From Candidatus Versatilivorator sp. (GTDB lineage Bacteria > Acidobacteriota > Terriglobia > Versatilivoradales > Versatilivoraceae), in assembly GCA_965207735.1 (NCBI GenBank), contig OZ242296.1, positions 2,144,001-2,208,000 of the forward strand: DNA of 64,000 bases, written 5' to 3'. The position numbers were made by a program, and so were the translations under genes. The notes beneath the pieces were generated by a model, which worked only from the letters and a program-made list of their open reading frames with translations, was not told the origin of the DNA and did not search any database. Positions within the stretch are counted from its first letter, which is position 1. Every line of letters begins with the position of its first letter. Positions 19,629-43,072 of the stretch are shown here, piece after piece.

Positions 19629-20861
19629 CTAAGTGACAGTATTCACCTGAATACCTCGGCTGATGGTGTCTCCTCCGGCAGACTTGAGTTGGTCCAGGTA
19701 ATCGGCCCACGCTTGCATCATCTTTCGACGTTCCGGCAAGTGAGCCGTTCGGTTGTAGGCCCGCCCGAGAGGATCACGCACCACATGTGCCAATTGGTGT
19801 TCGATGTAGTCGGGTCTAAAGCCCAACACTTCATCTAGGAGGGTTCTTGCCATGGCTCGAAAGCCATGCCCGCTCATTTCTTCCTTGCCGATATCCAGGC
19901 GACGCAGTGCGGCAAGAACGGCATTCTCGCTCATTGGACGATCTCCCCTTGGCGTGCGACCGCTCGGGAAGACAAAGCGTCCGTGTCCGGTCAGCGGGTA
20001 GAGTTCACGCAGAACCTCCACCGCCTGGCGGGATAAGGGCACGAGATGCGAGGTCTCAGTCTTGGTGACGGTAAAACGCCATTCGGCCGCTTCCAGGTCG
20101 ATATCGGACCATTCGGCTCTGCGTAGCTCGCCAGGCCGGACGAAAACCAATGGAGCCAGCCTGAGGGCACAGCGCACAATCAGTGACCCTTCGTAGCCGT
20201 CCAGCACTCTCAGCAAGGGACCAACCTTCTTGGGATCGGTGAGTGCAGCAAAGTGCTTTTTCTTTACGGGGGACAATGCGCCGCGCAAGTCTGCTGACAG
20301 GTCTCGCTCGGCGCGCCCCGTCGCCACGGCGTAGCGGAACACCTGTCCACAGTTCTGAAGGACCCGATGAGCGGTTTCCAGGACCCCGCGTTGTTCGATA
20401 CGGCGCACGACCTCCAACAACTGGGACGCGTTGATGTCGGCAATCGGATTGCCTCCCAACCAGGGGAAGATGTTTCTCTGAAGCCGACTCATAATCAGGC
20501 TGGAATGACTGGTTGCCCAGATCGGAGCCTGCTTGGTAAACCACTCGCGAGCTACGGCTTCAAAGGTGTTCGAGTCACGTTGCGCTTTAGCGGCCTTCTG
20601 GGCTTGGCGGTGTGCGCTTGGATCGACTCCCCCGGCCAATAGCCGTCGGGCATCTTCGCAGCGCCGCCGGGCTTCTTTGAGTGAAACGTCAGGATAGACT
20701 CCGAGAGAGATCCGTTTGTCCTTGCCTTCGAAGCGGTATTTTACTCGCCACCACTTGCCTCCTCGGGGTGAAACTTCAAGATATAGTCCACGCCCGTCGA
20801 ACATCTTTCTGGACTTCTTGCTTAGCTGAGCACGACGAATTGCAACATCGGTTAGGGGCAT
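19629..20861 (-). CDS. P4-like tyrosine integrase with arm-binding domain
   Basis: N-terminal DGRGLYLEV...LGVYPDVSL; catalytic R (VRPGE), HGFR, HQLAH, AYNR. Confidence 0.95.
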   Translation of the reverse strand: MPLTDVAIRRAQLSKKSRKMFDGRGLYLEVSPRGGKWWRVKYRFEGKDKRISLGVYPDVSLKEARRRCEDARRLLAGGVDPSAHRQAQKAAKAQRDSNTFEAVAREWFTKQAPIWATSHSSLIMSRLQRNIFPWLGGNPIADINASQLLEVVRRIEQRGVLETAHRVLQNCGQVFRYAVATGRAERDLSADLRGALSPVKKKHFAALTDPKKVGPLLRVLDGYEGSLIVRCALRLAPLVFVRPGELRRAEWSDIDLEAAEWRFTVTKTETSHLVPLSRQAVEVLRELYPLTGHGRFVFPSGRTPRGDRPMSENAVLAALRRLDIGKEEMSGHGFRAMARTLLDEVLGFRPDYIEHQLAHVVRDPLGRAYNRTAHLPERRKMMQAWADYLDQLKSAGGDTISRGIQVNTVT

Positions 20862-21025
20862 TTGGGGGCAACTCCTTTCAACGCCTTCTAATATACCCCA
20901 AATGTTGCCCCATTTTTCCCTCGGTTGTTAAGGGATATTATAAAACGAGGATAGACTATAAAATTTTTAAGTCTTTAACTAATAGTAATTTACTGGATAT
21001 TATTGGACGGCTTTGGAAGGATGTT

Positions 21026-21115
21026 TGGCGGAGGCGGTAGGATTCGAACCCACGGTACCCGTCAAGGTACAACGGTTTTCAAGACCGCCGCAATCGACCA
21101 CTCTGCCACGCCTCC
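21026..21115 (-). tRNA. tRNA-Ser(TGA)
   Basis: GGAGGCGTGGCAGAGTGGTCGATTGCGGCGGTCTTGAAAACCGTTGTACCTTGACGGGTACCGTGGGTTCGAATCCTACCGCCTCCGCCA; long variable arm, encoded CCA. Confidence 0.97.
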
Positions 21116-26399: not shown

Positions 26400-27374
26400 C
26401 TAACCCTTTCGCTTCAGAACTTCCCGGTTCACCAGGTAGGTCGGGACCTCGCCCCGGAGCACCTGAACCACCTGGCGAGCGGCTTTCTCGCGGACCTCCA
26501 CGTAGGCCTCCTCGGTGTAGGAGGCATAGTGCGGGGTGAGTACCACGTTGTCCAGACCCAGGATCGGATCCCGCGGGTCGGGTGGCTCCTTTTCCAGGAC
26601 GTCCAGGCCCGCTCCGGCGATCCACCCCTCCTGCAGAGCCCGGGTCAGGGCTTTCTGATCCACTACCGGTCCCCGAGAGGTGTTGACCAGGTAGGCGGTG
26701 GGCTTCATCAGGCGCAACTGAGGTTCCCCGATCATATGACGGGTCTCCGCGCTCAGCGGCACGTGTATGGACAGCACGTCCGACCGGGCCAGCAACTCCT
26801 CCAGTCCCACCAGTTCCACCGGCTGGCCGGCCAGATTGTCGGGCTGAACATAGGGATCGTGAGCCAGGACGCGGAAGCCGAACGGCGCGGCCTTCCTGGC
26901 CACTGACCGGGCGATGCGGCCGAAGGCCAGCAGCCCCAACGTCTGTCCGCGGGCCTTGTAAACGGGCATGGCCAGCTTGCGGTTGTAGACGCCCCGGGAA
27001 ACCAGGGAGTGCATCCTGACCACCTTGCGAGTCACCGCCAGGATCAGGCTCATGGCCGTATCCGACACCTCGTCATAGCAGAAATCGGGCACATTGGTGA
27101 CAAGGATCCCGTGATCGGTGGCTGCTTCCAGATCCACCGTGTCCACTCCGATGCCGTAGCGGGCGATCACTCTGGTCCGACTCCAGGAGGCAATGACCCG
27201 CCGGGTGATCGGGCTGAGGGAGACCAGCAAGGCGTGGGCGTCCGGGGTGGCCCGGATGACGTCCTCTTCGCCGTGGCAGTCGGCCGTAACGAGCTCGGCG
27301 CCGGCTTCGGCCAGAATCTCCTTCTCCACGGTGGGAACCATTCGCACTGAATCGACCGCTACAACCTTGAACAT
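26400..27374 (-). CDS. D-isomer-specific 2-hydroxyacid dehydrogenase (CtBP/SerA-like)
   Basis: RYGIGVDTVD, LAFGRIA, VNTSRG, LDVLEKEP, LTPHYA. Confidence 0.9.
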   Translation of the reverse strand: MFKVVAVDSVRMVPTVEKEILAEAGAELVTADCHGEEDVIRATPDAHALLVSLSPITRRVIASWSRTRVIARYGIGVDTVDLEAATDHGILVTNVPDFCYDEVSDTAMSLILAVTRKVVRMHSLVSRGVYNRKLAMPVYKARGQTLGLLAFGRIARSVARKAAPFGFRVLAHDPYVQPDNLAGQPVELVGLEELLARSDVLSIHVPLSAETRHMIGEPQLRLMKPTAYLVNTSRGPVVDQKALTRALQEGWIAGAGLDVLEKEPPDPRDPILGLDNVVLTPHYASYTEEAYVEVREKAARQVVQVLRGEVPTYLVNREVLKRKG

Positions 27375-27489
27375 GATCCCTCCCTCTTCTCTCCTCGCCG
27401 GGGGTCGGTCTCGACGCGACGCCGGAGCAACGTCCGACAAGGGGAAACCCCGCAACGGGGGGCTGTCCGCCCCCCGCCGGCCCGGCGGT

Positions 27490-28746
27490 TCAGAGCAGGT
27501 TCTTCAGATTGCCCCGCCCGTCGAAATCCAGTTCTCCCAGGTTCTCCAGGACCTGAAGATCCCGGTGGCGCTCCACTTCGTCCAGCAGGGCCTCGGAGGC
27601 CACCAAGCGGTCCAGCTTCAGGGTATTGCGGATCCAGACCATGCGGCAGTCTTCTCCGCTGGTGGCGCCGCTGGTGGAGATGGCCGTCTCCAGCGCCTCG
27701 CGATCGGAATCCACCGTCACCGGAATGCGGACGCTCTCCAGGTTGGTGCTGGTGAGGGCATTCACGTAGGTGGGTCGGGTGTCGATCTTGTCCACCAGGC
27801 GGCGGGTCACCACGTCGGCCATCCCCACCCCGATGGCGTTGCCGTAGGACTCCGGGGTCAGGTCCCGCACCACGATGCGGGAGAAGCGGGGAGCCCCGGC
27901 GAAGGGCTCGCCCGCGCCGGCGCGCCTGCCGATGACGTTGGTATCCATGCCGGTCCCGCTGACGTTTTTCCCCATCTCATCCACCAGCAGCAGGTCCCCG
28001 CGGTCGAAGGGAATGCGGGCCAGCCAGGACTTGGCTACTTTCAGCAGCCGCTTTTCGACGTCGAACAGCTCGGCCGAGGTCATCGCCTCGATCATCCCCG
28101 TCTGGTCGTAGCCGTTCTCCACGATGCCCAATGCCAGCAGGATGCTGCAGCGCCGCCTGACCACCTCGGCCACTCCGGTCAGCACCCGATAGTAACCATA
28201 GCGCTTGTTGGCGCGGTGATAGCGGATGGCGCCCTGGTGCTTCCCCAGGCCGATGGCCAGCATCTTGGTGAGGCCGCTCTCGATCTCGGCGTCGAAGTCG
28301 GTGTGGGGCTTGATGCGGTTGACCACGGCGATGTGGTCGGCTTCCAGGACGTTCCTGTCCAGCACCACCGGGATCCCCTCAGGGGTCTCTCCAATGGGAA
28401 GCGTCTCCATGGTGGCCCGGATGGGCACGCCCATGGCGGCCTCGGTGATGCCGTAGCGCTCCAGCACGCCGCGTTGCCCGGCGGCCGTTCCGCCCCCGTG
28501 ACTTCCCATGGCGGGAACGATGAAGGGCCGCGCCCCCCGCTTTTTAAGCTCCTCCGCCAGGCTGCGGGTGATGGCGGCGATGTTGGCCACGCCCCGGCTT
28601 CCGGATGTGATGGCGACGCTGTCCCCCGGTTTCAAGCGGCCGCTCAGGTCGAGCCGGGCGACTTCCCGGGCCACTCCTGCCGGAATGTCCTCCACCCGGG
28701 TCGAGTGGAAACGCTGCCTGACCCGAAACACCCTGGGGAATGCCAT
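27490..28746 (-). CDS. lactate racemase (LarA)/DUF2088-domain protein
   Basis: GSRGVANI, VPAMGSHGGGTAAGQ, NRIKPHTDF, ESGLTKMLAIGLGK, GKNVSGTGMDTNVIGR. Confidence 0.75.
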   Translation of the reverse strand: MAFPRVFRVRQRFHSTRVEDIPAGVAREVARLDLSGRLKPGDSVAITSGSRGVANIAAITRSLAEELKKRGARPFIVPAMGSHGGGTAAGQRGVLERYGITEAAMGVPIRATMETLPIGETPEGIPVVLDRNVLEADHIAVVNRIKPHTDFDAEIESGLTKMLAIGLGKHQGAIRYHRANKRYGYYRVLTGVAEVVRRRCSILLALGIVENGYDQTGMIEAMTSAELFDVEKRLLKVAKSWLARIPFDRGDLLLVDEMGKNVSGTGMDTNVIGRRAGAGEPFAGAPRFSRIVVRDLTPESYGNAIGVGMADVVTRRLVDKIDTRPTYVNALTSTNLESVRIPVTVDSDREALETAISTSGATSGEDCRMVWIRNTLKLDRLVASEALLDEVERHRDLQVLENLGELDFDGRGNLKNLL

Positions 28747-28953
28747 GCCCGCTCCCGGAAGACCGCTGGAGACAACCCGTCGGTCCGCTCACCGCCTGAA
28801 AATGCCGATCAATATACCAAAAAATGCTGCCGCCGCCGCAACAGCCCTATAAAATCCAGTGATGTCTAGAGCCGTCCAGTAGAGTCTATAACTGTCTTAT
28901 TTATGAGTGTCTTACATAAGTCCTGCCGTGGCTTGTCTTGCTACCAACATCCC

Positions 28954-28982
28954 TTGCAATCCACTGTCATCCCCCATATAAT
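28954..28982 (+). promoter_or_regulatory. sigma70-type promoter of the second integrase (leaderless-type)
   Basis: TTGCAA-17 bp-TATAAT, with ATG 6 nt downstream. Confidence 0.7.
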
Positions 28983-28988
28983 GGGGGG

Positions 28989-30212
28989 ATGGATACTGTA
29001 ACGGACTTCGCACCTGCCCGACCCAAGACGAAACCCACCGGCTGCCACCCCAGCAACGCCCTTTCGGCCGCCTTCCTACGCTCCGCTCCGCCCGGAAGAT
29101 ACGCCGATGGAAACGGATTGTACCTCTTCGTCCAGCCCAGCGGAACCCGCAGTTGGATTCAACGCCTCGTCGTCCGTGGCCGTCGCCGGGAGTTCGGTCT
29201 CGGCAGCGTTGCCCTGGTCTCCCTGGCCGAGGCCAGGGAGAAGGCCCTGGCTAACCGCAAGCTCGCCCGCCAGGGCGGAGACCCTCTTGCCGAGAAGCGC
29301 CGCGCCGAGGGCATCCCCTCCTTTGCGGAAGCCGCCTCACGTGTGCTGGAACAGAAGCGGGACGGATGGCGAGGCCGGCGTCACCACCGCGAGTGGATGT
29401 CGAGCCTGAGGCGGTACGCTTTCCCCCGCATCGGCAAGATGCCGGTCTCAGAGGTCACCAGCGCCGACCTGCTTGAGATCCTCACCCCTATCTGGCACCG
29501 GAAGGCCTCCAGCGCGCGGCGGGTGCGCCAGCGCCTGCGGGCGGTCCTGGAATGGGCCGTAGCCATGGAGTACAGGATCGACAACCCCTGCGACAGGATC
29601 GGCCCGGTCCTGGGTCCCCAACAGGACGTTACCGAGCATATGCGGGCCTTGCCCCATCGGGAGGTGGCCGCGGCCATCCGGACGGTGCAGGCAGCGACGG
29701 CGCCGGAGGTGGCCAAGCTGGCCTTCGAGTACCTGGTTCTGACGGCAGCCAGGTGGAGCGAGGTGCGCTGGGCCGAGTGGGCGGAGATCGATCGGGACGC
29801 AGGTGTATGGACCGTCCCGGCCAGGCGGATGAAGGCCAACCGCCGGCACCCGGTGCCGCTCTGTGGACGTGCCCTGGAGATTCTCGAGGCGGCACGGACC
29901 CTGGGCGAGGGAGCCGGTACTCTGGTGTTCACCCGTGGGGAAGGGAAGCCGCTCAGTGACAAGGAGCTGCGGTGGCTGGTCCGCGAGCAGGGGATTGCAG
30001 CGGTGCCGCACGGGTTCCGCTCCAGTTTCCGGGACTGGGCGGCCGAAGAGACCGATCATCCCCGGGAGGTGATCGAGGCGGCCCTGGCGCATGTGGTTCG
30101 GAACCGGGTCGAGGCGGCCTATGCCCGCTCCGACCTGTTCGAGCGCCGGCGTCGGCTCATGGATGACTGGGCCGGCTACCTGGCCGGCCCGAGCCGAGGG
30201 CCGCAGGCCTAA
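28989..30212 (+). CDS. P4-like tyrosine integrase with arm-binding domain
   Basis: YADGNGLYLFVQPSG...GLGS...VSLAEARE; TAARWSE, PHGFRSSFRDW, ALAH, AAYARSD. Confidence 0.93.
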   Translation: MDTVTDFAPARPKTKPTGCHPSNALSAAFLRSAPPGRYADGNGLYLFVQPSGTRSWIQRLVVRGRRREFGLGSVALVSLAEAREKALANRKLARQGGDPLAEKRRAEGIPSFAEAASRVLEQKRDGWRGRRHHREWMSSLRRYAFPRIGKMPVSEVTSADLLEILTPIWHRKASSARRVRQRLRAVLEWAVAMEYRIDNPCDRIGPVLGPQQDVTEHMRALPHREVAAAIRTVQAATAPEVAKLAFEYLVLTAARWSEVRWAEWAEIDRDAGVWTVPARRMKANRRHPVPLCGRALEILEAARTLGEGAGTLVFTRGEGKPLSDKELRWLVREQGIAAVPHGFRSSFRDWAAEETDHPREVIEAALAHVVRNRVEAAYARSDLFERRRRLMDDWAGYLAGPSRGPQA

Positions 30213-30278
30213 GCAGAGCTCGATGGCCGTGCGGGGCGGGGACAGCGGGGCCGGCGGCGCACCGCGTAGTGCCGGGGA

Positions 30279-30340
30279 GCCAGCCTACCCAATGTAATAC
30301 ATTGGGGCTGGCGAGGGGCTCCGGCCCCTTCGAACCCCCG
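30279..30340. other. oriT-like hairpin
   Basis: GCCAGCC-TA-CCCAATGTA-A-TACATTGGG-GCTGGC, followed by GGGGCTCCGGCCCC..GAACCCCC. Confidence 0.4.
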
Positions 30341-30416
30341 ACCGGGGAGAGCTCTCCCCTGGCCCCTCCATCACCCCCGCCGCTCCCTTCTCCCTCTCCC
30401 ATGACGGAGGCCTCGA

Positions 30417-30697
30417 TGGCGCGAGTAGCGACAGCGAACGAGCGTGTGTGGAGCATCCCGGCCCCGCGCACGAAGGGGAATCGCGAGCACCGGGTCCCGC
30501 TGTGCCGTCGCGCCCTGGAGATTCTGGAGGAGGCGCGAGGTGGCGGAGGCTGCGCTGGCGCACAAGGTCCGCAACAGATCGAGGCGGCCTACCGGCGCCC
30601 GGACCTGTTCGAGCGTCCCCGCCGGCTCATGGAGGACTGGGCCGCCTACCTGGCCGGCGGAAGTCGAGGGCCGGACCGGCCGGTTGATCGGCCCTGA
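30417..30697 (+). pseudogene. degenerate 3' fragment of a paralogous integrase
   Basis: VWSIPAPRTKGNREHRVPLCRRALEILEEAR, then (frameshifted) EVAEAALAHKVRN..IEAAYRRPDLFER..RLMEDWAAYLAG; the HGFR segment is deleted. Confidence 0.85.
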
Positions 30698-30714
30698 CCT
30701 CGGCAGCGCTCGAT

Positions 30715-31170
30715 GGCCTTCCCGCCAGGGATCACTGTGGAGGGAGCGACCCCCGCACGGGGGAGGCAAAGGGTGTCCGGATCCCTGTCCACCTTTGCCC
30801 TCCCCCGTGGCGCACCAGCGGCCAAAAAGGGGGGGTCGCTCCCTCCACCAGCACCCCTCTCGTGCGGCGCGCGGGCGTGCCGGGCGAGGGGGGACACGCG
30901 AGGCGCAGCCTCGCTTCGCTTCTCCGCAATGGTCGCGGGGAATCCGTGTCGTCCCGCGTCTGGTGCGGCGTTTCGTGAAAGTCGCCAACCACAACGGCGA
31001 GGGGCTCCGCCCTCCGAGAAGAGGCGTTGTGCGGATCAAGATCATGTCCCCCTTTGATGTCACCCCCCCCTTCTGAAAGGGTGACACCCATCTGACGGCA
31101 TCTGCTTGACCCCCAGCGGTGGAAATCGTCGATCATTCCAGGGTCATTGGGTGAGCCTGTTTCTTGCTCC
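30715..31170 (+). repeat. left copy of a ~460-bp diverged, structured inverted repeat
   Basis: Aligns by eye in blocks to the reverse complement of 32341-32810 (e.g. GGCCTTCCCGCCAGGGATCACTGT, GCACCAGCGGC, TCTGAAAGG, CTTGACCCC, GGAAATCGTCGATCAT). Confidence 0.85.
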
Positions 31171-31396
31171 GATTCATCCCCACGCCTGCAGGGAACAGGA
31201 CCCTGACCAGTATTCCGAATGGCTGAAGACGGACCATCCTTTACGTCTCTCGCGGAAATGTCGCTGTCCGCATGAACCGTGCCATCACTTTGCTCAAGCG
31301 CCGCATTGATGCACGCACTCAATCCGTTTCGCCCAAAGGCTCCAGACAGTCCTGAACAGTCCCATCTGAAAAAAATTGTCGGTACTGAGGGAAAAT

Positions 31397-31603
31397 ATGA
31401 AGCGCTGCGACCCAGGATCAGGCGGGGAATCTTGCAGGGCTGGATGCAAGATAGCTAAAGAGATCTGCCTAATACGGGCAGGCAAAGCCTATTGCGCAGA
31501 CAAGAGTGATTGTTGCTGGTATAAGAACCCGGGACGGCCCCATCCGGGCTCGTGGCCCTGCTACTACTACGACAACAATTGCCCCGCTGCTTGTTGTGCC
31601 TGA
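31397..31603 (+). CDS. 68-aa cysteine-rich peptide (11 Cys), function unknown
   Basis: GAGGG RBS and ATG 31397; lower-GC segment; MKRCD...CC...CPAACCA. Confidence 0.55.
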   Translation: MKRCDPGSGGESCRAGCKIAKEICLIRAGKAYCADKSDCCWYKNPGRPHPGSWPCYYYDNNCPAACCA

Positions 31604-31632
31604 AAGCCCCATGGAGCAATAGGAGGGGACAC

Positions 31633-31884
31633 ATGACACGTTTCTTCGCCGGAGTAGGGATTGGCGCATTCGTTGTTTTGTTGCTGGTTTCTCTCTGGTT
31701 TCTCCATTGGAGTCTAGTATCTAACCCCGAAGATGAGCTATTCAGTCAAGTTCTGATTCAATGGGTGCTGTTTCTGATCCCCGAGGTGATTCTGCTACTC
31801 CTGCTTTGGCGGGTGTGGAAGGCTCTTGTCGGGATCCAGCTCGAGTTGGGGAAGATTCGTCGCGGCGTGGATGATCGGGAGTAA
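31633..31884 (+). CDS. small two-TM membrane protein
   Basis: Strong AGGAGG RBS; two hydrophobic helices followed by a basic amphipathic tail. Confidence 0.7.
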   Translation: MTRFFAGVGIGAFVVLLLVSLWFLHWSLVSNPEDELFSQVLIQWVLFLIPEVILLLLLWRVWKALVGIQLELGKIRRGVDDRE

Positions 31885-31906
31885 GGGCATATCCTATGAA
31901 CGCTAC

Positions 31907-32602
31907 ATGATTACCGGAATAGTCGTTGACGTCGCCGTTGCCCTGCTGTGGGGCATCATCTCAGCCCTGAACCACCGGTATGACGCCCCGGAGCGGCCCT
32001 GGTCGCCACCCCAGCAAGACGACCAGGGAGGGTGCTGGACTGGCACCCCCGGGAAAAAACAGATTTCCCTGGCTCTTCGTGGCCGTATCGGGACGGTTAG
32101 CCCGGACCGAATGGCGACCACGGGACCGCTGAGCGAGCCGACCCGTCCGGTTTCCCCACAGGCGGCGAGACCTGCGGTCCCTGAGATGGAAATCCGTCCA
32201 GGAGGCGTTTCCGGGTGCTCTGCTATGCCAGGGAGTGAGAAAGTCCAGCCTGCCCCCCGCAAAGCTCGCGGATTCAGGGGTCAGGACACGATCGAACGCC
32301 ATGGCGGCCTCGGTGTCGTCATGGAGAAGATCGACCAATGGGAGCAGGAAGACCCGGCCTCCAACGGCCGCGACATGATCGACGATTTCCGCCTCCCGGG
32401 GTCAAGGACGTGGCGTCGTATGGGTGGCCACCTTTCAGACGGGGGGTGGCTCACACAGGTGGCGCACCAAGTGGCTCACGCTTTGGACCACCCCAACGCT
32501 CCACTCTCAGAGGGCGAAGCCCTCGCCGCCGTGGTCCAGGCTGTTCCCGGAAACCCGCATTGGACGCGGGTTGGCACGGATTTCCCAAATCCTATGGGGT
32601 AA
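31907..32602 (+). CDS. possible hypothetical protein with an N-terminal hydrophobic segment; reads into the right inverted repeat
   Basis: MITGIVVDVAVALLWGIISAL...; weak RBS; may be a chimeric remnant. Confidence 0.25.
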   Translation: MITGIVVDVAVALLWGIISALNHRYDAPERPWSPPQQDDQGGCWTGTPGKKQISLALRGRIGTVSPDRMATTGPLSEPTRPVSPQAARPAVPEMEIRPGGVSGCSAMPGSEKVQPAPRKARGFRGQDTIERHGGLGVVMEKIDQWEQEDPASNGRDMIDDFRLPGSRTWRRMGGHLSDGGWLTQVAHQVAHALDHPNAPLSEGEALAAVVQAVPGNPHWTRVGTDFPNPMG

Positions 32603-32810
32603 AGCCCCGTGGGGCGTCGGCATCGCGTGTCCGCCCCCTCGCCCGGCGCGTCGTGGGGCCGCACAGGAGGGGGGGAAGTGGAGGGAGCGACCCCCCTCCT
32701 TTTGCCGCTGGTGCAGCACCGGGGAGTGTTCACCGGCGCGTACAGTGGCGCGCGGTGAACACTCCCCTGCGGGGGTCGCTCCCTCAACAGTGATCCCTGG
32801 CGGGAAGGCC
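32341..32810 (-). repeat. right copy of the ~460-bp structured inverted repeat
   Basis: See the left copy; same outer stem GGAGGGAGCGACCCCC/GGGGGTCGCTCCCTC, different inner stem. Confidence 0.85.
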
Positions 32811-33055
32811 TCCAGCGCCTCCTCACCGAGCGGCACCTCAACGTCGGCTCCCGGCTGCGCGCCCTCGTCGATGAGGCCCTCGAAGAACAGAAGACCACAG
32901 ATGGCCAGAGGCCGAGAAGGACAAGGCTGGAGGATGCTCACAACCCGATATCTCCGATCCGAAGCACGGACAGCCTACCACCCCGCTCGACGGTCTCCGA
33001 CGCAGAGTCTCGGGGGTTGAACATCGTAAGACCTGTCCACCAACGTCCTGAATAG
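32810..33055 (+). pseudogene. start-less fragment resembling a ribbon-helix-helix protein
   Basis: LQRLLTERHLNVGSRLRALVDEALEEQ begins exactly at the repeat boundary; high-GC3 codons. Confidence 0.35.
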
Positions 33056-33153
33056 TCCAGTGGATTCCCGTTCAAATAGAGGGATATAATGAGGGGATTA
33101 CAACAGGGCTAACCACAGTAAGTCTAATATAATGAACAGTTACAAGTTTTCTG

Positions 33154-33250
33154 ATGTAGTCGCCGCCTACGCGGCTCGACACCCATACGCGACGTTTCCC
33201 ATGGGCTGACGCCCACGGCTAAGTGCTGCCGCGGCCTACTCGGCTCCACT
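33154..33250. repeat. REP-like family B element
   Basis: GTCGCCGCCTACGCGGCTCGAC...CCATGGGCTGACGCCCACGGCTAAGTGCTGCCGCGGCC; similar to 42499-42592. Confidence 0.8.
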
Positions 33251-33284
33251 CGATTCTCTGACATTCACTCCCGGGACGCCGCGT

Positions 33285-34385
33285 TTGCCCCCCACCGCAT
33301 CAGCCTTCGCCATTCGGCTCGGCTTCTGCGACTCCCCCTCAAGGGGGGAGTGATACCGGGCACTAACCGGGACCGGCGTTGACACATTGGACCGGGAACA
33401 TGGTTTACATCCCGCCCGGGAAACGGGCAAGACGCCCCATGCAAGCCTCAAGTATCACTCCCCCCTTGAGGGGGAGTCGGAGAGACAAGGGCGCAGCCCG
33501 CAGTCGATCCGGAGGGGGGCAGACTCGGCGTCCCGAAAGTGGCAATCGGCAGTACTCGCAGAGCCACAAAGCGAGACGGACCTGCTTCAACGGCACGCGT
33601 TGCCCCAAAGCCGCGCCGGCGACCGCCCCCCACCGCATCAGCCTTCGCCATTCGGCTCGGCTTCTGCGACTCCCCCTCAAGGGGGGAGTGATATCGGGCA
33701 CTAACCGGGAACGGCGTTTACACTTTAGACCGGGAACATGGTTTACACCCTGCCCGGGAAACGGGCAAGGCGCCCCATGCAAGCCTCAAGTATCACTCCC
33801 CCCTTGAGGGGGAGTCGGAGAGACAAGGGCACAGCCCGCAGTCGATCCGGTGGGGGGCAGACTCGGCGTCCCGTAAAAGCCGATCAGCGGCACTCACAGA
33901 GCCACAAAGCGAGATGGACCTGCTTCAACGGCACGCGTCGCCCCAAAGCCGCGCCGGCGTCTGCCCCCCACCGCATCAGCCTTCGCCATTCGGCTCGACT
34001 TCTGCGACTCCCCCTCAAGGGGGGAGTGATACACGGGCACTAACCGGCAACGGCGTTTACACATTGGACCGGGAACATCGTTTACATCATGCCCGCGAAT
34101 CGGGCAAGGCGCCCCATGCAAGCCTCGAGTATCACTCCCCCTTGAGGGGGAGTCGGAGAGACAAGGGCACAGCCCGCAGTCGATCCGGTGGGGGGCCAAC
34201 GCGGCGTCCCGTAAAAGCCGATCAGCGGCACTCACAGAGCCACAAAGCGAGACGGACCTGCTTCAACGGCACGCGTTGCCCCAAAGCCGCGCCGGCGTCC
34301 GCCCCCCACCGCATCAGCCTTCGCCATTCGGCTCGGCTTCTGCGACTCCCCCTCAAGGGGGAAGTGATACACGGGCACTAACCGG
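33285..34385. repeat. tandem array of family A REP-like composite units, period 338-339 bp (about 3.3 units)
   Basis: ATCACTCCCCC(C)TTGAGGGGGAGTCGGAGAGACAAGGG at 33454, 33792 and 34131; each unit is closed by an inverted copy. Confidence 0.93.
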
Positions 34386-34458
34386 GACGGCACTCCCGGG
34401 AGCGCGGGCGTCCCGCCCGCCTCCTGTCCCGACCAACGCTATCGTCCCTCCCCCGCCG

Positions 34459-36774
34459 CTACCAGGCCAGGCGGAGGCCGCTGGTGATCATCCGGGGGGG
34501 GCCGATGCCCAACACCAAGGTGTTCGAGACCGGAATCCGGCGGTTGAGCAGGTTCTCCACGGCAAGGGTCAGAACCAGGTTGCGGTGCACCCTCTTGGAG
34601 ACCTGAAGGTCCAGCAGAGTGGTGTTGGCCAGCGGCCGGAGGTTGCGGTCGTCGTCAAACTGCAGCCCCAGGAAACGGGCCAGCAGGAAGGCGTTGAGGA
34701 CTCCGGGGCGTGCATAGCTCAGCGAGGCCGTGAGCCGGTGGCGGGGCACCTGGGGCAACCGGTTCGACTCCACCCCGGGGTTCTCCGGAAAGCGGCCGAA
34801 GGTGGAATCGGCCAGCAGGTAGCCTCCTCGCAGCCTCCAGTCCCGGTTCAACCGCAGCGTCAGATCCGCGTCCAGGCCCCGGGCGTTGACACGACCCACG
34901 TTCTGCCGCTGTCGGGTAATGAGCGCGGGGGTGGTCCCCAGGGTGATGTTGGAAATGGCCTGGCTCAGGTCGTTCCAGTAGGCCGTCAGCCGCCCTCTGA
35001 CCCGGGATCCGCCGTACCAGTCCACACCGGCCTCGGCGCCCCTGAGTGTTTCCGGTCGCAGGTTCTCGTTGGCCAGGGTCACCACGTTGCCCACCCGAAA
35101 TCCGCGGTAGAGCTCGTTGAGGGTGGGCGCCCGGAAGCTGCGGTAGACGGCTCCCCTGAAGGTGAGGGCCTCGGTGGCGTGATAGGAGACCCCGCCCCTG
35201 GGACTGAGCATGCCGCCCCCGCGCCGGGAAAACTCGAGGACGGTGGAGGTTCCGGACGGCAGCGGGACCTGATCGCGGGCGGCATCGTGGTTGAACCAAC
35301 CGTCCAGCCGGGCGCCGAGCTGCAGCTGCCAGCGGGATCCCAGGTCCACCAGGTCCTGGAAGTAGACCCCGCCCAGTTGCTGATGGCCACCCAGCACCTG
35401 AAACTGAGCCGGCATCCCCGAGCGGAAACCGGTCTCCCGGCTGTGGCCCCTCACCCATTGCCAATCCACTCCGGAAGTCATCAGGTGGCGCTGTCCCAGC
35501 AGGCCCGTCCACTGCAGGGAACCGCCGGCGCTGCGGGCCGGCACCTGCTGTTCGCGGGTCAGGAACTCCGAGCGCCGGTGGGAAGGAACGGCGGTAAAGC
35601 TGCTGTCGAAGGTCTGGGTCAGGCCGTAGGCGCTGAGCTGCCACTCCCTCCCCCGGTCGTCTTTCCGTCGGTAGAGACCCCGAACCCGGGTCACATCGGT
35701 GGCGTTCGCCCTCAGCGGGGTTCCGTTTCCCCGATCTTCGCCGAAGTGCTCCAACCGCAGCGTCGCCTGCCCCCCTCGGCCGGGTTGGTAGAACGCCGCC
35801 GCCCGGACCGAGTAGGCGCGGGAGTTGGCCGGCAGGTCCACCGGGCCGCGATCCTCCGGAGCCACCACCTGATATCCGCCGGTGCGAAAGAAAGAGCCGG
35901 AAACCAGACCGCTCCAGCGTTCTCCTCCAACCGAGCCCAGCAGGTCGGCCCGGGCCGTTCCCAGAGAGCCGCCCCGGAGGTCCAGCTCGAACCGCGGGAA
36001 CCGGGGCGCCTTGGAAAAGGCCTGGATCACGCCCCCCAGAGCGGAGCTCCCGTAGAGGCTGGAGCCACCCCCGGGGACCACCTCGATGCGTTCCAGGCTG
36101 CTCTTATCCAGCTGGCTCCAATAGACCCATCCTCCAAAGGGATCGTTGAGCGGTGTCCCGTCCCACAACACCAGCGTGCGGCTGACGCCGCTGGGTCCGA
36201 TCCCCCGCAGGGACACCCCCTGGCTGGTGGGATGGGCCACCAGGCTGCTGCTGCGCCGAAAGAGGCTGAAAGACGGAATCCGGCGCAAGAGGTCGTCGAC
36301 GGTGATTGCCGGGGATTGACCCAACTCCGGTTCTCCCAGCACCGTGACGGCCGAGGGAATGTTTCTCAAGGTGCGCGGGGTGCGGGTGGCGGTGACCGTC
36401 AGCGACTGCTCCACCCGCCGGGGAACCAGTGTGAAAGCGGTCTTCCAGTCGCCGAGGGGTTGAACCAGGTCCTCGAAGTCCGGATGACTCAGTCTCAGGG
36501 CCTGGGCCGCCGGAGAAACCGTCTCGAATTGGAAGCCGCCTTGGGGGCCGGTGGCGGTTTGCGCCAGCACACGCCCCTGCGCTGAAACCAGCATTACCCG
36601 GACTCCAACAATGGCCCTGAGGTCGGAATCCACGACCTGGGCGTGAAGGGGCGGCGGGGCGGCTGCTTCCGTGCCGGAATCGCCTTGGCTTTCGGCCAGG
36701 AGGCCGGCCGGGAAAGAGAGAGAAACCAGGAGCAGGGCTGAGGCGAGGCTGCAAGAGGTGGACAATGGAGGCAA
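34459..36774 (-). CDS. TonB-dependent receptor
   Basis: Signal peptide, LTVTATRTP, plug SLRGIG...LERIEVVPGGGSSLYGSSALGGVI, C-terminal aromatic residue (RLAW). Confidence 0.93.
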   Translation of the reverse strand: MPPLSTSCSLASALLLVSLSFPAGLLAESQGDSGTEAAAPPPLHAQVVDSDLRAIVGVRVMLVSAQGRVLAQTATGPQGGFQFETVSPAAQALRLSHPDFEDLVQPLGDWKTAFTLVPRRVEQSLTVTATRTPRTLRNIPSAVTVLGEPELGQSPAITVDDLLRRIPSFSLFRRSSSLVAHPTSQGVSLRGIGPSGVSRTLVLWDGTPLNDPFGGWVYWSQLDKSSLERIEVVPGGGSSLYGSSALGGVIQAFSKAPRFPRFELDLRGGSLGTARADLLGSVGGERWSGLVSGSFFRTGGYQVVAPEDRGPVDLPANSRAYSVRAAAFYQPGRGGQATLRLEHFGEDRGNGTPLRANATDVTRVRGLYRRKDDRGREWQLSAYGLTQTFDSSFTAVPSHRRSEFLTREQQVPARSAGGSLQWTGLLGQRHLMTSGVDWQWVRGHSRETGFRSGMPAQFQVLGGHQQLGGVYFQDLVDLGSRWQLQLGARLDGWFNHDAARDQVPLPSGTSTVLEFSRRGGGMLSPRGGVSYHATEALTFRGAVYRSFRAPTLNELYRGFRVGNVVTLANENLRPETLRGAEAGVDWYGGSRVRGRLTAYWNDLSQAISNITLGTTPALITRQRQNVGRVNARGLDADLTLRLNRDWRLRGGYLLADSTFGRFPENPGVESNRLPQVPRHRLTASLSYARPGVLNAFLLARFLGLQFDDDRNLRPLANTTLLDLQVSKRVHRNLVLTLAVENLLNRRIPVSNTLVLGIGPPRMITSGLRLAW

Positions 36775-42498: not shown

Positions 42499-43072
42499 TG
42501 CTGTCGCCGCCTTCGCGGCTCGACGCTTACCCTAACCGTATCCATGGGCTGACGCCCACGGCTACCTGCTGCCGCCGCTTCGCGGCTCCACTCGAGCCCC
42601 GGGCTGACGCCGGGGGAACAAAATGTTCTTTTCCGAGGCCGGCGTTGGTCCCCGTCCGGCTCGACGGCGGGCTGCGCCTTTATGGTAGTCACGCACGGGG
42701 CGCCGAGTTTGCCCCCCTCCGGATCGACTGCGGGCTGGCGCCCTTGTCTCTCCGACTCCCCCTCAAGGGGGGAGTGATACTTGAGGCTTGCAAGAGGCGC
42801 CGTGCCCAATTCCTGGGTGCGATGTAAACCATGTTCCCGGTCTAATGTATAAACTCCGTTCCCTCTTCATAACACGGATATCACTCCCCCCTTGAGGGGG
42901 AGTCGCAGAAGTCGAGCCGAATGGCGAAGGCTGATGCGGTGGGGGGTTCGCACAAGGCGAGCCACAGGCGAGATCTTGTGCGCCGTAGCGGTAACCGCCG
43001 GCGTGCGTCGGTTGCGGTGGGGGAGTCGCAGAAGCCGAGCCGAATGGCGAAGGCCGATGCGGTGGGGGGTGG
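42499..43072. repeat. intergenic mosaic of family B (42499-42615) and family A (42710-43072) REP-like elements
   Basis: Same palindromic motifs as at 33154-34385. Confidence 0.88.

Follow-up and report, generated by a model that had tools for sequence, protein, structure and literature searches.

Integrases of the IntSXT subgroup/P4 cluster are described as inserting beside conserved genes, such as tRNA genes, guaA, and prfC (PMC8138268; this and the other published systems are compared as the consulted parts of the sources present them). An integrase of this kind is encoded by a 4.3-kb island (positions 28838-33160) in a stretch of 64,000 nucleotides from Candidatus Versatilivorator sp. (GenBank assembly GCA_965207735.1, contig OZ242296.1, positions 2,144,001 to 2,208,000 of the forward strand), the whole of which is called the window. 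It shares with that cluster an N-terminal DUF4102 arm-binding domain, the RKHRH-Y catalytic set, a gene that adjoins the left attachment site attL, and a short overlap. In contrast, its target is a fast-turnover, multi-copy repeat, 15 copies of one type are present in the genome, and no AlpA or P4 satellite genes were seen in the scanned open reading frames (ORFs). An initial annotation had proposed that the island uses a repetitive extragenic palindrome (REP), not a tRNA gene, as its chromosomal attachment site, attB. We consider it very probable that the island belongs to a family sitting at a fixed CGCCGCC of a multi-copy intergenic REP, and that its integrase placed it there by recombination of the lambda/P4 type with the REP as attB.

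Repeated sequences have been described as targets of other recombinases. The phiRv1 prophage of Mycobacterium tuberculosis has a serine integrase with its attB in the repeated sequence REP13E12 (PMC9317374). In both cases, the attB of a site-specific recombinase lies inside a repeated chromosomal sequence, but phiRv1 is a prophage and its recombinase is of the serine type. REP13E12 is a long, few-copy repeat and is not known as a Y1-associated hairpin REP. REPs are targeted by the insertion sequences (IS) IS621, IS1594, IS1397, ISPa11, ISPpu9/10, and ISPsy8 (PMC3184786, PMC1525189), which, like the present family, find many safe intergenic landing sites there. However, as described, these elements use IS110 or IS3 enzymes and have neither an arm-binding tyrosine integrase nor multi-gene island cargo. 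A DEDD or DDE transposase is not the present element's own enzyme; it is a tyrosine integrase gene that adjoins attL.

Retargeting within mobile DNA is described for an integrase clade of helper-embedded phage-inducible chromosomal islands (PICI), which repeatedly changes targets within prophages and of which the subclades follow site groups (PMC10111431). There too, a single integrase clade repeatedly evolved new sites in mobile DNA, but those elements are satellites that target late genes of prophages, whereas here insertion is into REPs, dispersed relics of genes, paralogues, and genes of the family itself. Site-promiscuous integrase clades are mentioned, without detail in the part consulted (PMC12884075), and in the VIPR preprint REPs appear only as guide-RNA targets. 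A tyrosine integrase with a REP as attB was not found in the open-access literature, a scope outside which most subscription papers fall. Thus, REP targeting by IS elements and repeat targeting by a serine integrase were already known; the case of a tyrosine integrase appears to be new within that scope, and the observation is real and well supported.

Ends of the island family and the repeat that holds them

The complete 5.26-Mb genome contains ~20 near-full relatives of the island integrase, and a profile search for inner element ends yielded 26 left and 30 right ends. Type A, which includes the island, accounts for 15 left and 16 right ends; these make 15 pairs, 2.06-44.4 kb in length, and leave one right end as an orphan. 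All 15 left ends consist of TGCTG(C/T), CGCCGCC (exact in 13 and with one change in two), and GCAAC, and all 15 paired right ends of TGT(A/G)GT, CGCCGCC, and T(A/T)CGCGGCT. Right ends without a matching left end lie at G000:C1 3351768 (type A) and 1336138 (type B). In the window, TGCTGC (28825-28830) and CGCCGCC (28831-28837) on the left, TGTAGT (33155-33160) and CGCCGCC (33161-33167) on the right, and an intact and unoccupied target REP at 42499-42590 (+ strand, motif match) are all found where the initial annotation had placed them, and the occurrence of 15/15 left and 16/16 right type-A ends at the same CGCCGCC supports its proposal of a REP as attB. The left junction of the island is crossed with 0 differences by one contig from runs X19/X20, which represent a single sample and possibly the source of the assembly. 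Eighteen runs with a small share were left out of account as evidence on habitat.

The base that precedes the heptamer is C in 11 of the 15 left ends, T in the other four, and T in all 15 right ends. Because this base differs between left and right ends, the core is best centred on a 7-bp overlap (TGTAGT-CGCCGCC-GCAACA), which places the left crossover no earlier than that base and limits the overlap to at most these 7 bp. The dyad symmetry of the circle junction predicted earlier is kept when centred on these 7 bp; the earlier version, centred on 6 bp, is dropped. For the mv4 integrase, a 7-bp exchange region between the core sites is described (10.1101/2023.11.06.565760).

Nearly all of the 22 paired elements, which are of types A, B, and C, have GGGGA-type boxes and a box resembling a binding site for integration host factor (IHF) at fixed distances from the core. 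In the island, attL (28825-28842, + strand) comprises the REP-derived TGCTGC, the overlap, and the element-side core GCAAC, and homology to 13 other copies begins at 28822-28825. Further inward is an AT-rich tract with an IHF-like box, TATGAGTGTCTTA (28889-28914, with the box at 28902-28914, + strand). In 21 of the 22 elements, this box is located at +64/+65 from the overlap, where 0.09 per 160 bp would be expected. The consensus used for TATGAGTGTCTTA is one which we take to be that of IHF, and binding is presumed. GGGGGA-type boxes, candidate arm sites for the integrase, overlap the integrase start region (28969-28988, + strand) and lie ~131 and/or 143 from attL, at offsets fixed across the 22 elements. 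The right end carries GGGGA-type boxes (33080 and 33091) and an AT-rich tract (33119-33142; together 33080-33142, + strand), the boxes being at offsets 81-82 and 70-71 from the right attachment site, attR, in 22/22 elements. This site (33155-33176, + strand) comprises the element-side core TGTAGT, the overlap (33161-33167), and the REP-derived TACGCGGCT, and its cores are shared with the other copies. The AT-rich inner tracts (from 28889 and 33119) and the GGGATATAATG box (33081) of the initial annotation are, thus, present. Such an arrangement of boxes and core is the anatomy expected for attP, the site on the circular form of an element of the lambda/P4 type, and suggests that these boxes are bound.

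A tRNA gene is at least 3.2 kb away from each of the 22 elements, whereas a control integrase is located 228 bp from its tRNA. In agreement with the earlier remark that no tRNA gene is near the island integrase, the window contains tRNA genes only at 21026 and 47203, the closest being 7.7 kb off the island. The control, at 19695-21115, is a conventional integrase that adjoins tRNA-Ser and is 29% identical.

CGCCGCC itself occurs 4,575 times on both strands of the genome. The full REP site, TGCTGN-CGCCGCC-TWCGCGGCT, has 62 exact matches and 96 at no more than one mismatch, and none in the shuffled genome; in the window, the REP motif is matched three times as compared with 0 in 100 shuffles. 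About 96 REP sites are free. Among units with a perfect heptamer, 15 are occupied and 62 free, as against 0 and 72 among units with a 6-bp or altered heptamer (Fisher p 3e-5, for sites that are not independent). At several ends in the relatives G003, G006, and G010, the heptamer is CGCCGCA or CGCCGCG, as in the local REP. Both the restriction to perfect-heptamer units and the match between end variants and local REP fit a need for overlap homology.

In the repeat, a GC hairpin unit is combined with a hairpin on the opposite strand that is preceded by GTAG; there are 96-107 hairpin copies, as against none in a shuffle. Of the 120 matches to the REP site, only 18 fall in long stop-free frames, which make up 80% of the genome. 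In the REPtron layout, inverted REPs surround a Y1 transposase gene (PMC8266576). Likewise, a hairpin preceded by GTAG is present in the target repeat, and inverted copies of this repeat flank a Y1 HUH transposase gene in the relatives G002 and G011 (L141, L142). However, the Y1 protein scores as IS200-type in NCBIfam (NF033573, 80-85 vs. a cut-off of 55) and stays below the cut-off for REP-associated (RAYT) proteins (NF047646, 30 vs. 80), and a Y1 gene of the REP type was not found in the present genome, where just one weak match without REPs was seen. Inverted REPs of two families surround such Y1 transposases, scoring IS200-type and not REP-associated, at L141, L142, L143, and L146. At the tested loci, the REP is mostly missing from the more distant relatives, and REPs thus turn over quickly.

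Empty sites and competing explanations

When the flanks of the type-A elements are rejoined, a subtype-matched repeat that is intact elsewhere in the genome is rebuilt in seven of the 15 cases (91-97% over 162-213 bp), and the flanks of the other eight match intact repeats at 77-84%. Eleven of the 15 sites were compared in five relatives, of which G002 is the closest genome. An intact REP extends across the junction in G002 at six of the 11 sites (A1, A3, A6, A8, A12, and A13), the empty site of A1 matching at 96% across -1514..+1213, and G002 has no type-A element at the same place at any of the 11. Reciprocally, the flanks of a 27-kb element of G002 match the present genome (98.6% over 2,593 bp), as do those of an element of G009 (87.6% over 2,173 bp), and this reverse test also gave a continuous match for one type-B pair and one gene-targeting pair. 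Among the distinct ends in the relatives of the genus, 26 of the 50 left ends are of type A, 14 of type B, and three of type C, and 24 of the 45 right ends are of type A, eight of type B, and seven of type C. Hence, slightly more than half of the boundaries in relatives fall, as had been anticipated, in the CGCCGCC of the REP, most of the others being in two other dispersed repeats, and the empty sites place the boundary at the same base.

Several observations weigh against insertion into REPs by the integrase. Seven left and six right ends in the relatives fall outside all three repeat classes. In G002, four of the 11 sites have no empty REP: at A4, the element and the entire repeat block are missing in all five relatives, and A7, A11, and A15 hold other sequence. 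Also, the REP spacer differs at A6, and a continuous orthologous span in the present genome was found for only two of the 14 type-A pairs from relatives, the repeat region being different in the rest. An AlpA-type excisionase is absent from the 22 elements, and the genome's sole AlpA lies outside them. The circle junction that the initial annotation had predicted was not found: its five matches in the metagenome and viral collections were all attributable to chance, there was none among the 13 joints listed for four runs, and none in the genome or the retrieved loci. As contigs drop rare variants, however, its lack in assembled contigs does not equal absence. Finally, the copies are 90-97% identical, which does not point to activity today.

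The locus of the island itself has a further complication. The island is missing there from 13/13 relatives. In G002, there is one hairpin unit; its match to the left flank extends to the end of the overlap and is taken up again at ~33221. In run X24, a contig has 28763 joined to 33224. The right part of the REP next to the island (33168-33250, + strand) consists of a spacer, a GTAG-type hairpin on the minus strand (33199-33221), and a second hairpin unit from 33224. Both empty alleles lack 33161-33223, i.e., 63 bp of this right-hand REP, which also counts against the proposal, since deletion of the island does not restore the exact ancestral sequence here. The earlier claim that removal of the island restores a REP thus holds for an intact repeat of the family, but not for the real empty alleles at this locus. 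The extra 63 bp may have arisen by gene conversion between element ends or may be a carried-in flank, as the 75 bp from 33161 have their best match in the attR flank of element A11 (98.7%); possibly, they were instead lost in the two relatives. The attL and attR cores are unaffected by this difference.

These points bear on the alternatives. The absence of both the repeat block and the element at A4 in all five relatives and the missing 63 bp would fit the idea that the REP halves are the element's own carried ends and that insertion is otherwise unspecific. This idea is largely refuted and highly improbable: the flanks vary by REP subtype, with the left half matching the right half, and intact REPs are present at orthologous empty sites. 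The similarity to the A11 flank, suggestive of conversion or a carried-in flank, and the presence of the REP around a Y1 HUH transposase gene in G002 and G011 could mean that the islands owe their positions to another process, either the REP's own Y1 transposase or RecA-mediated conversion among copies flanked by REPs, with the integrase as a passenger. We regard this as very doubtful, given that no such Y1 gene is present in this genome, that the boundaries fall at a tyrosine-recombinase core in every class, those with non-REP targets included, and that the integrase has a dN/dS of 0.15.

The position of the overlap on one arm of a GC-rich stem-loop (z -2.25), and the use of the REP hairpin from the other side by type C, raise the question of whether what the integrase recognises in the REP is a folded single-stranded hairpin, as in integrons, rather than a duplex core site. 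This is unlikely, given the arm-binding domain of the enzyme and the phased arm and IHF-like boxes of the element. Furthermore, type B and the out-of-genus relatives target coding motifs without such a hairpin, and variant units that still form the hairpin stay unoccupied. Lastly, an integrase of low specificity with a mere 7-bp GC preference, for which the REP match would be coincidental, might be imagined in view of the many different targets in the wider clade. It is refuted by the finding of 15/15 insertions in ~110 REP units out of 4,575 heptamers, and its probability is negligible.

If, as we favor, the integrase inserts the islands into the REP as a duplex attB, it would bind the arm boxes and an element end bent by IHF. 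A circle with attP TGTAGT-CGCCGCC-GCAAC would then be excised, as the anatomy of the ends and the established arm-binding tyrosine integrases suggest, and could reinsert at any REP unit with a matching overlap. Copies would multiply when an element leaves one sister chromosome and inserts in the other, or when it enters again from another cell, and new targets would be gained through an off-target insertion that exchanges the overlap. An internal integrase deletion is common to copies at five REP sites; three of these copies measure 2,062 bp, with identities of 90-95.5%. The occurrence of such copies at five sites implies movement in trans, and they would have been mobilized by the integrase of another copy. 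Together with the 15 occupied sites and the lack of co-occupation in the closest relative at the 11 sites tested, these copies support the transposon-like spread that had been suggested initially. The 22 paired elements amount to 357 kb, or 6.8% of the genome, and genes for defence and host interaction are likely dispersed with them over the chromosome.

The integrase, the island, and its cargo

The integrase gene (28989-30212, + strand) is intact and encodes a protein of 407 amino acids with an arm-binding DUF4102 domain (PF13356) and core-binding and catalytic domains (PF22022, PF00589). The catalytic residues R255, K282, H341, R344, H368, and Y378 are invariant in the integrase alignment. 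The type-A integrase is under purifying selection, with a dN/dS of 0.15 among nine intact copies. Its closest solved structures include the arm domain of a CP4-like integrase; the score for PRK09692 in NCBIfam is 143 bits, below the curated cut-off of 434. Among named records, those nearest to the integrase belong to Ca. Versatilivorator (Acidobacteriota), and relatives at 65-76% identity are found in Gemmatimonadota, Vicinamibacterales, and Bryobacterales. In the viral collection, the best integrase was 52% identical and no phage carrier was found. The label "P4-like" in the initial annotation, therefore, holds for the integrase, but satellite genes of P4 or PICI (AlpA, primase, Psu/Sid, and capsid morphogenesis) were not seen among 91 ORFs of at least 215 amino acids from 14 elements.

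Downstream of the integrase gene, a degenerate second copy of its 3' end remains (30444-30673, + strand; direct repeats D1/D2 at 77-80%, tblastn). It is followed by a first copy of an internal repeat, X (30706-31240, + strand; core 30706-31139), which forms a long hairpin with 18-bp arms. A segment of low-GC cargo (31240-32045; 53-55% GC) contains a small hydrophobic ORF (31633-31884, + strand) without a Pfam family; this cargo recurs in a type-C element of the relative G013. Next are a second, inverted copy of repeat X, recognised as a sequence repeat (32046-32818, - strand; core 32375-32818), and the truncated relic of a short ORF (32810-32900, + strand), which is kept close to the right end in many elements. 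It has no Pfam match, and we take it to resemble a ribbon-helix-helix regulator. Apart from the integrase, the ORFs of the island have no Pfam family, and Rfam gave no match in 27000-35000. The island is flanked on the left by a host gene for a Lar_N-domain protein (27490-28746, - strand), with an orthologue in 13/13 relatives of the genus, and on the right by a gene for a TonB-dependent receptor (34459-36774, - strand; domain search). Between the island and the receptor gene, three to four tandem units of ~338 bp, another palindromic repeat, occupy 33280-34430, and a shorter version is present in G002.

Repeat X measures 440 bp and is present in all 22 elements, which contain 52 of its 59 copies in the genome; in viral contigs, only three matches of 17-18 bp were found. 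It may possibly serve as a transfer origin. Genomic islands of the iOriT type are described as carrying an integrase and defence cargo but no relaxase (10.64898/2026.01.13.699239). The present elements similarly are integrase-only islands with defence cargo, and their conserved internal hairpin could be an origin of transfer (oriT). In contrast to the iOriT islands, this oriT is a candidate only, and the coupling protein PF02534 was found in one of 14 genomes of the genus, which is not the present one. Relaxase or type IV secretion genes were not found among the 91 scanned ORFs, a scan that did not include a genome-wide relaxase search.

The same 91 ORFs include genes for ankyrin, leucine-rich repeat (LRR), Sel1, tetratricopeptide repeat (TPR), and LDL-receptor-repeat proteins, besides restriction-modification, IS, and group II intron genes. 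DDE genes, present in some elements, are internal passengers. A scan of 40 ORFs for defence systems matched, among others, Zorya II and a fusion of reverse transcriptase and nitrilase. A complete-looking Zorya II system (ZorA, B, and E) is located in element A3 (L168:15002-18104), and a reverse transcriptase-nitrilase fusion of 1,486 amino acids is found with type IIG restriction-modification genes in element A11 (L177:9464-19146). An IS of 1,487 bp occurs in A7, A10, B1, B4, B5, and C1, with three copies in A10 alone. Since its copies are 99.7-100% identical, it is far more recent than the islands.

Sister integrases, other targets, and meaning for the family

Sister integrases that are ~80-84% identical have similar arms and a changed overlap. 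Type B (five pairs; overlap CCGTGCA-like) is inserted in dispersed 5' relics of GxxExxY/PF13366 genes, and type C (two pairs; overlap CGCGTAG) uses the REP hairpin from the opposite side. Intact GxxExxY/PF13366 genes with flanking ATCCTGT arrays are found in relatives (L425-L429), the present genome having partial matches only. Element B3 (G000:C1 2004797-2009007) has a type-B integrase and target together with a right end that is 92% identical to a type-A right end. This chimera suggests that the target is set by the overlap, not the arm. In trees, the integrases group by target, except for one type-B row and three REP-A rows at 82-84%, which are unresolved within a clade with support of 99. 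As these trees were made with a quick method and FastTree, without a clade test, no donor or order of events is claimed.

Other, more distant members insert into the family itself. Type D, with an integrase that is 65-67% identical, inserts in the repeat X of other elements at the equivalent of 30711-30730 in the window, i.e., the 5' end of the first copy. An end search located its left ends at G000:C1 636439, 1013922, 1124585, and 2498744 and its right ends at G000:C1 1111396 and 1540957. Type D is, thus, a hyperparasite of the family. Further members are inserted at several fixed points of the family's integrase gene (G000:C1 3871645-3885286, 1534561, 1144145, and 4237544; L025 and L113). 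These insertions explain the abundant 3' fragments of integrase genes, such as that at 30444-30673 in the window.

Outside the genus, only two of 75 GTDB loci hold any tRNA gene, and neither has it at attL. Related integrases in Vicinamibacterales, Bryobacterales, and Gemmatimonadota (L293, L295, L317, L322; L308, L325, L326; L273, L282, L283, L294) appear to be inserted at conserved motifs of paralogous genes, which we take to encode PQQ (pyrroloquinoline quinone)-dehydrogenase-like proteins and surface-protein repeats. From a reading of the flanking codons, the out-of-genus left ends presumably lie in ArdC-like, surface-repeat, PQQ-dehydrogenase, TPR, HNH, and integrase genes.

On balance, we lean toward a wider view, in which a clade of P4-type integrases in marine and sponge-type symbionts left single-copy conserved targets for multi-copy DNA, with retargeting by a swap of the 7-bp overlap while the arms were kept. 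In Ca. Versatilivorator, REP hairpins and dispersed gene relics would have been colonised by a family that resembles a transposon and has autonomous, non-autonomous, as well as hyperparasitic members. This family, ~7% of the chromosome, would move ankyrin, LRR, and Sel1 proteins about, together with anti-phage systems.

As described, arm-binding tyrosine integrases use one site, in a conserved gene, whereas here one family uses ~110 interchangeable intergenic sites, which blurs the boundary between genomic island and transposon. Two selfish systems are coupled, as REP turnover makes and removes the landing sites of the islands. The closely related enzymes (80-94% identical) with different 7-bp overlaps and targets constitute a natural series for testing how specificity changes, and the elements are a testable candidate for the carrier of these bacteria's defence systems and eukaryote-like repeat proteins. 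With its very short attB, the integrase is also a candidate tool for multi-copy integration. If this interpretation is true, the family would represent a natural multi-site integration system, programmable by its overlap, and a route by which eukaryote-like proteins spread among symbionts.

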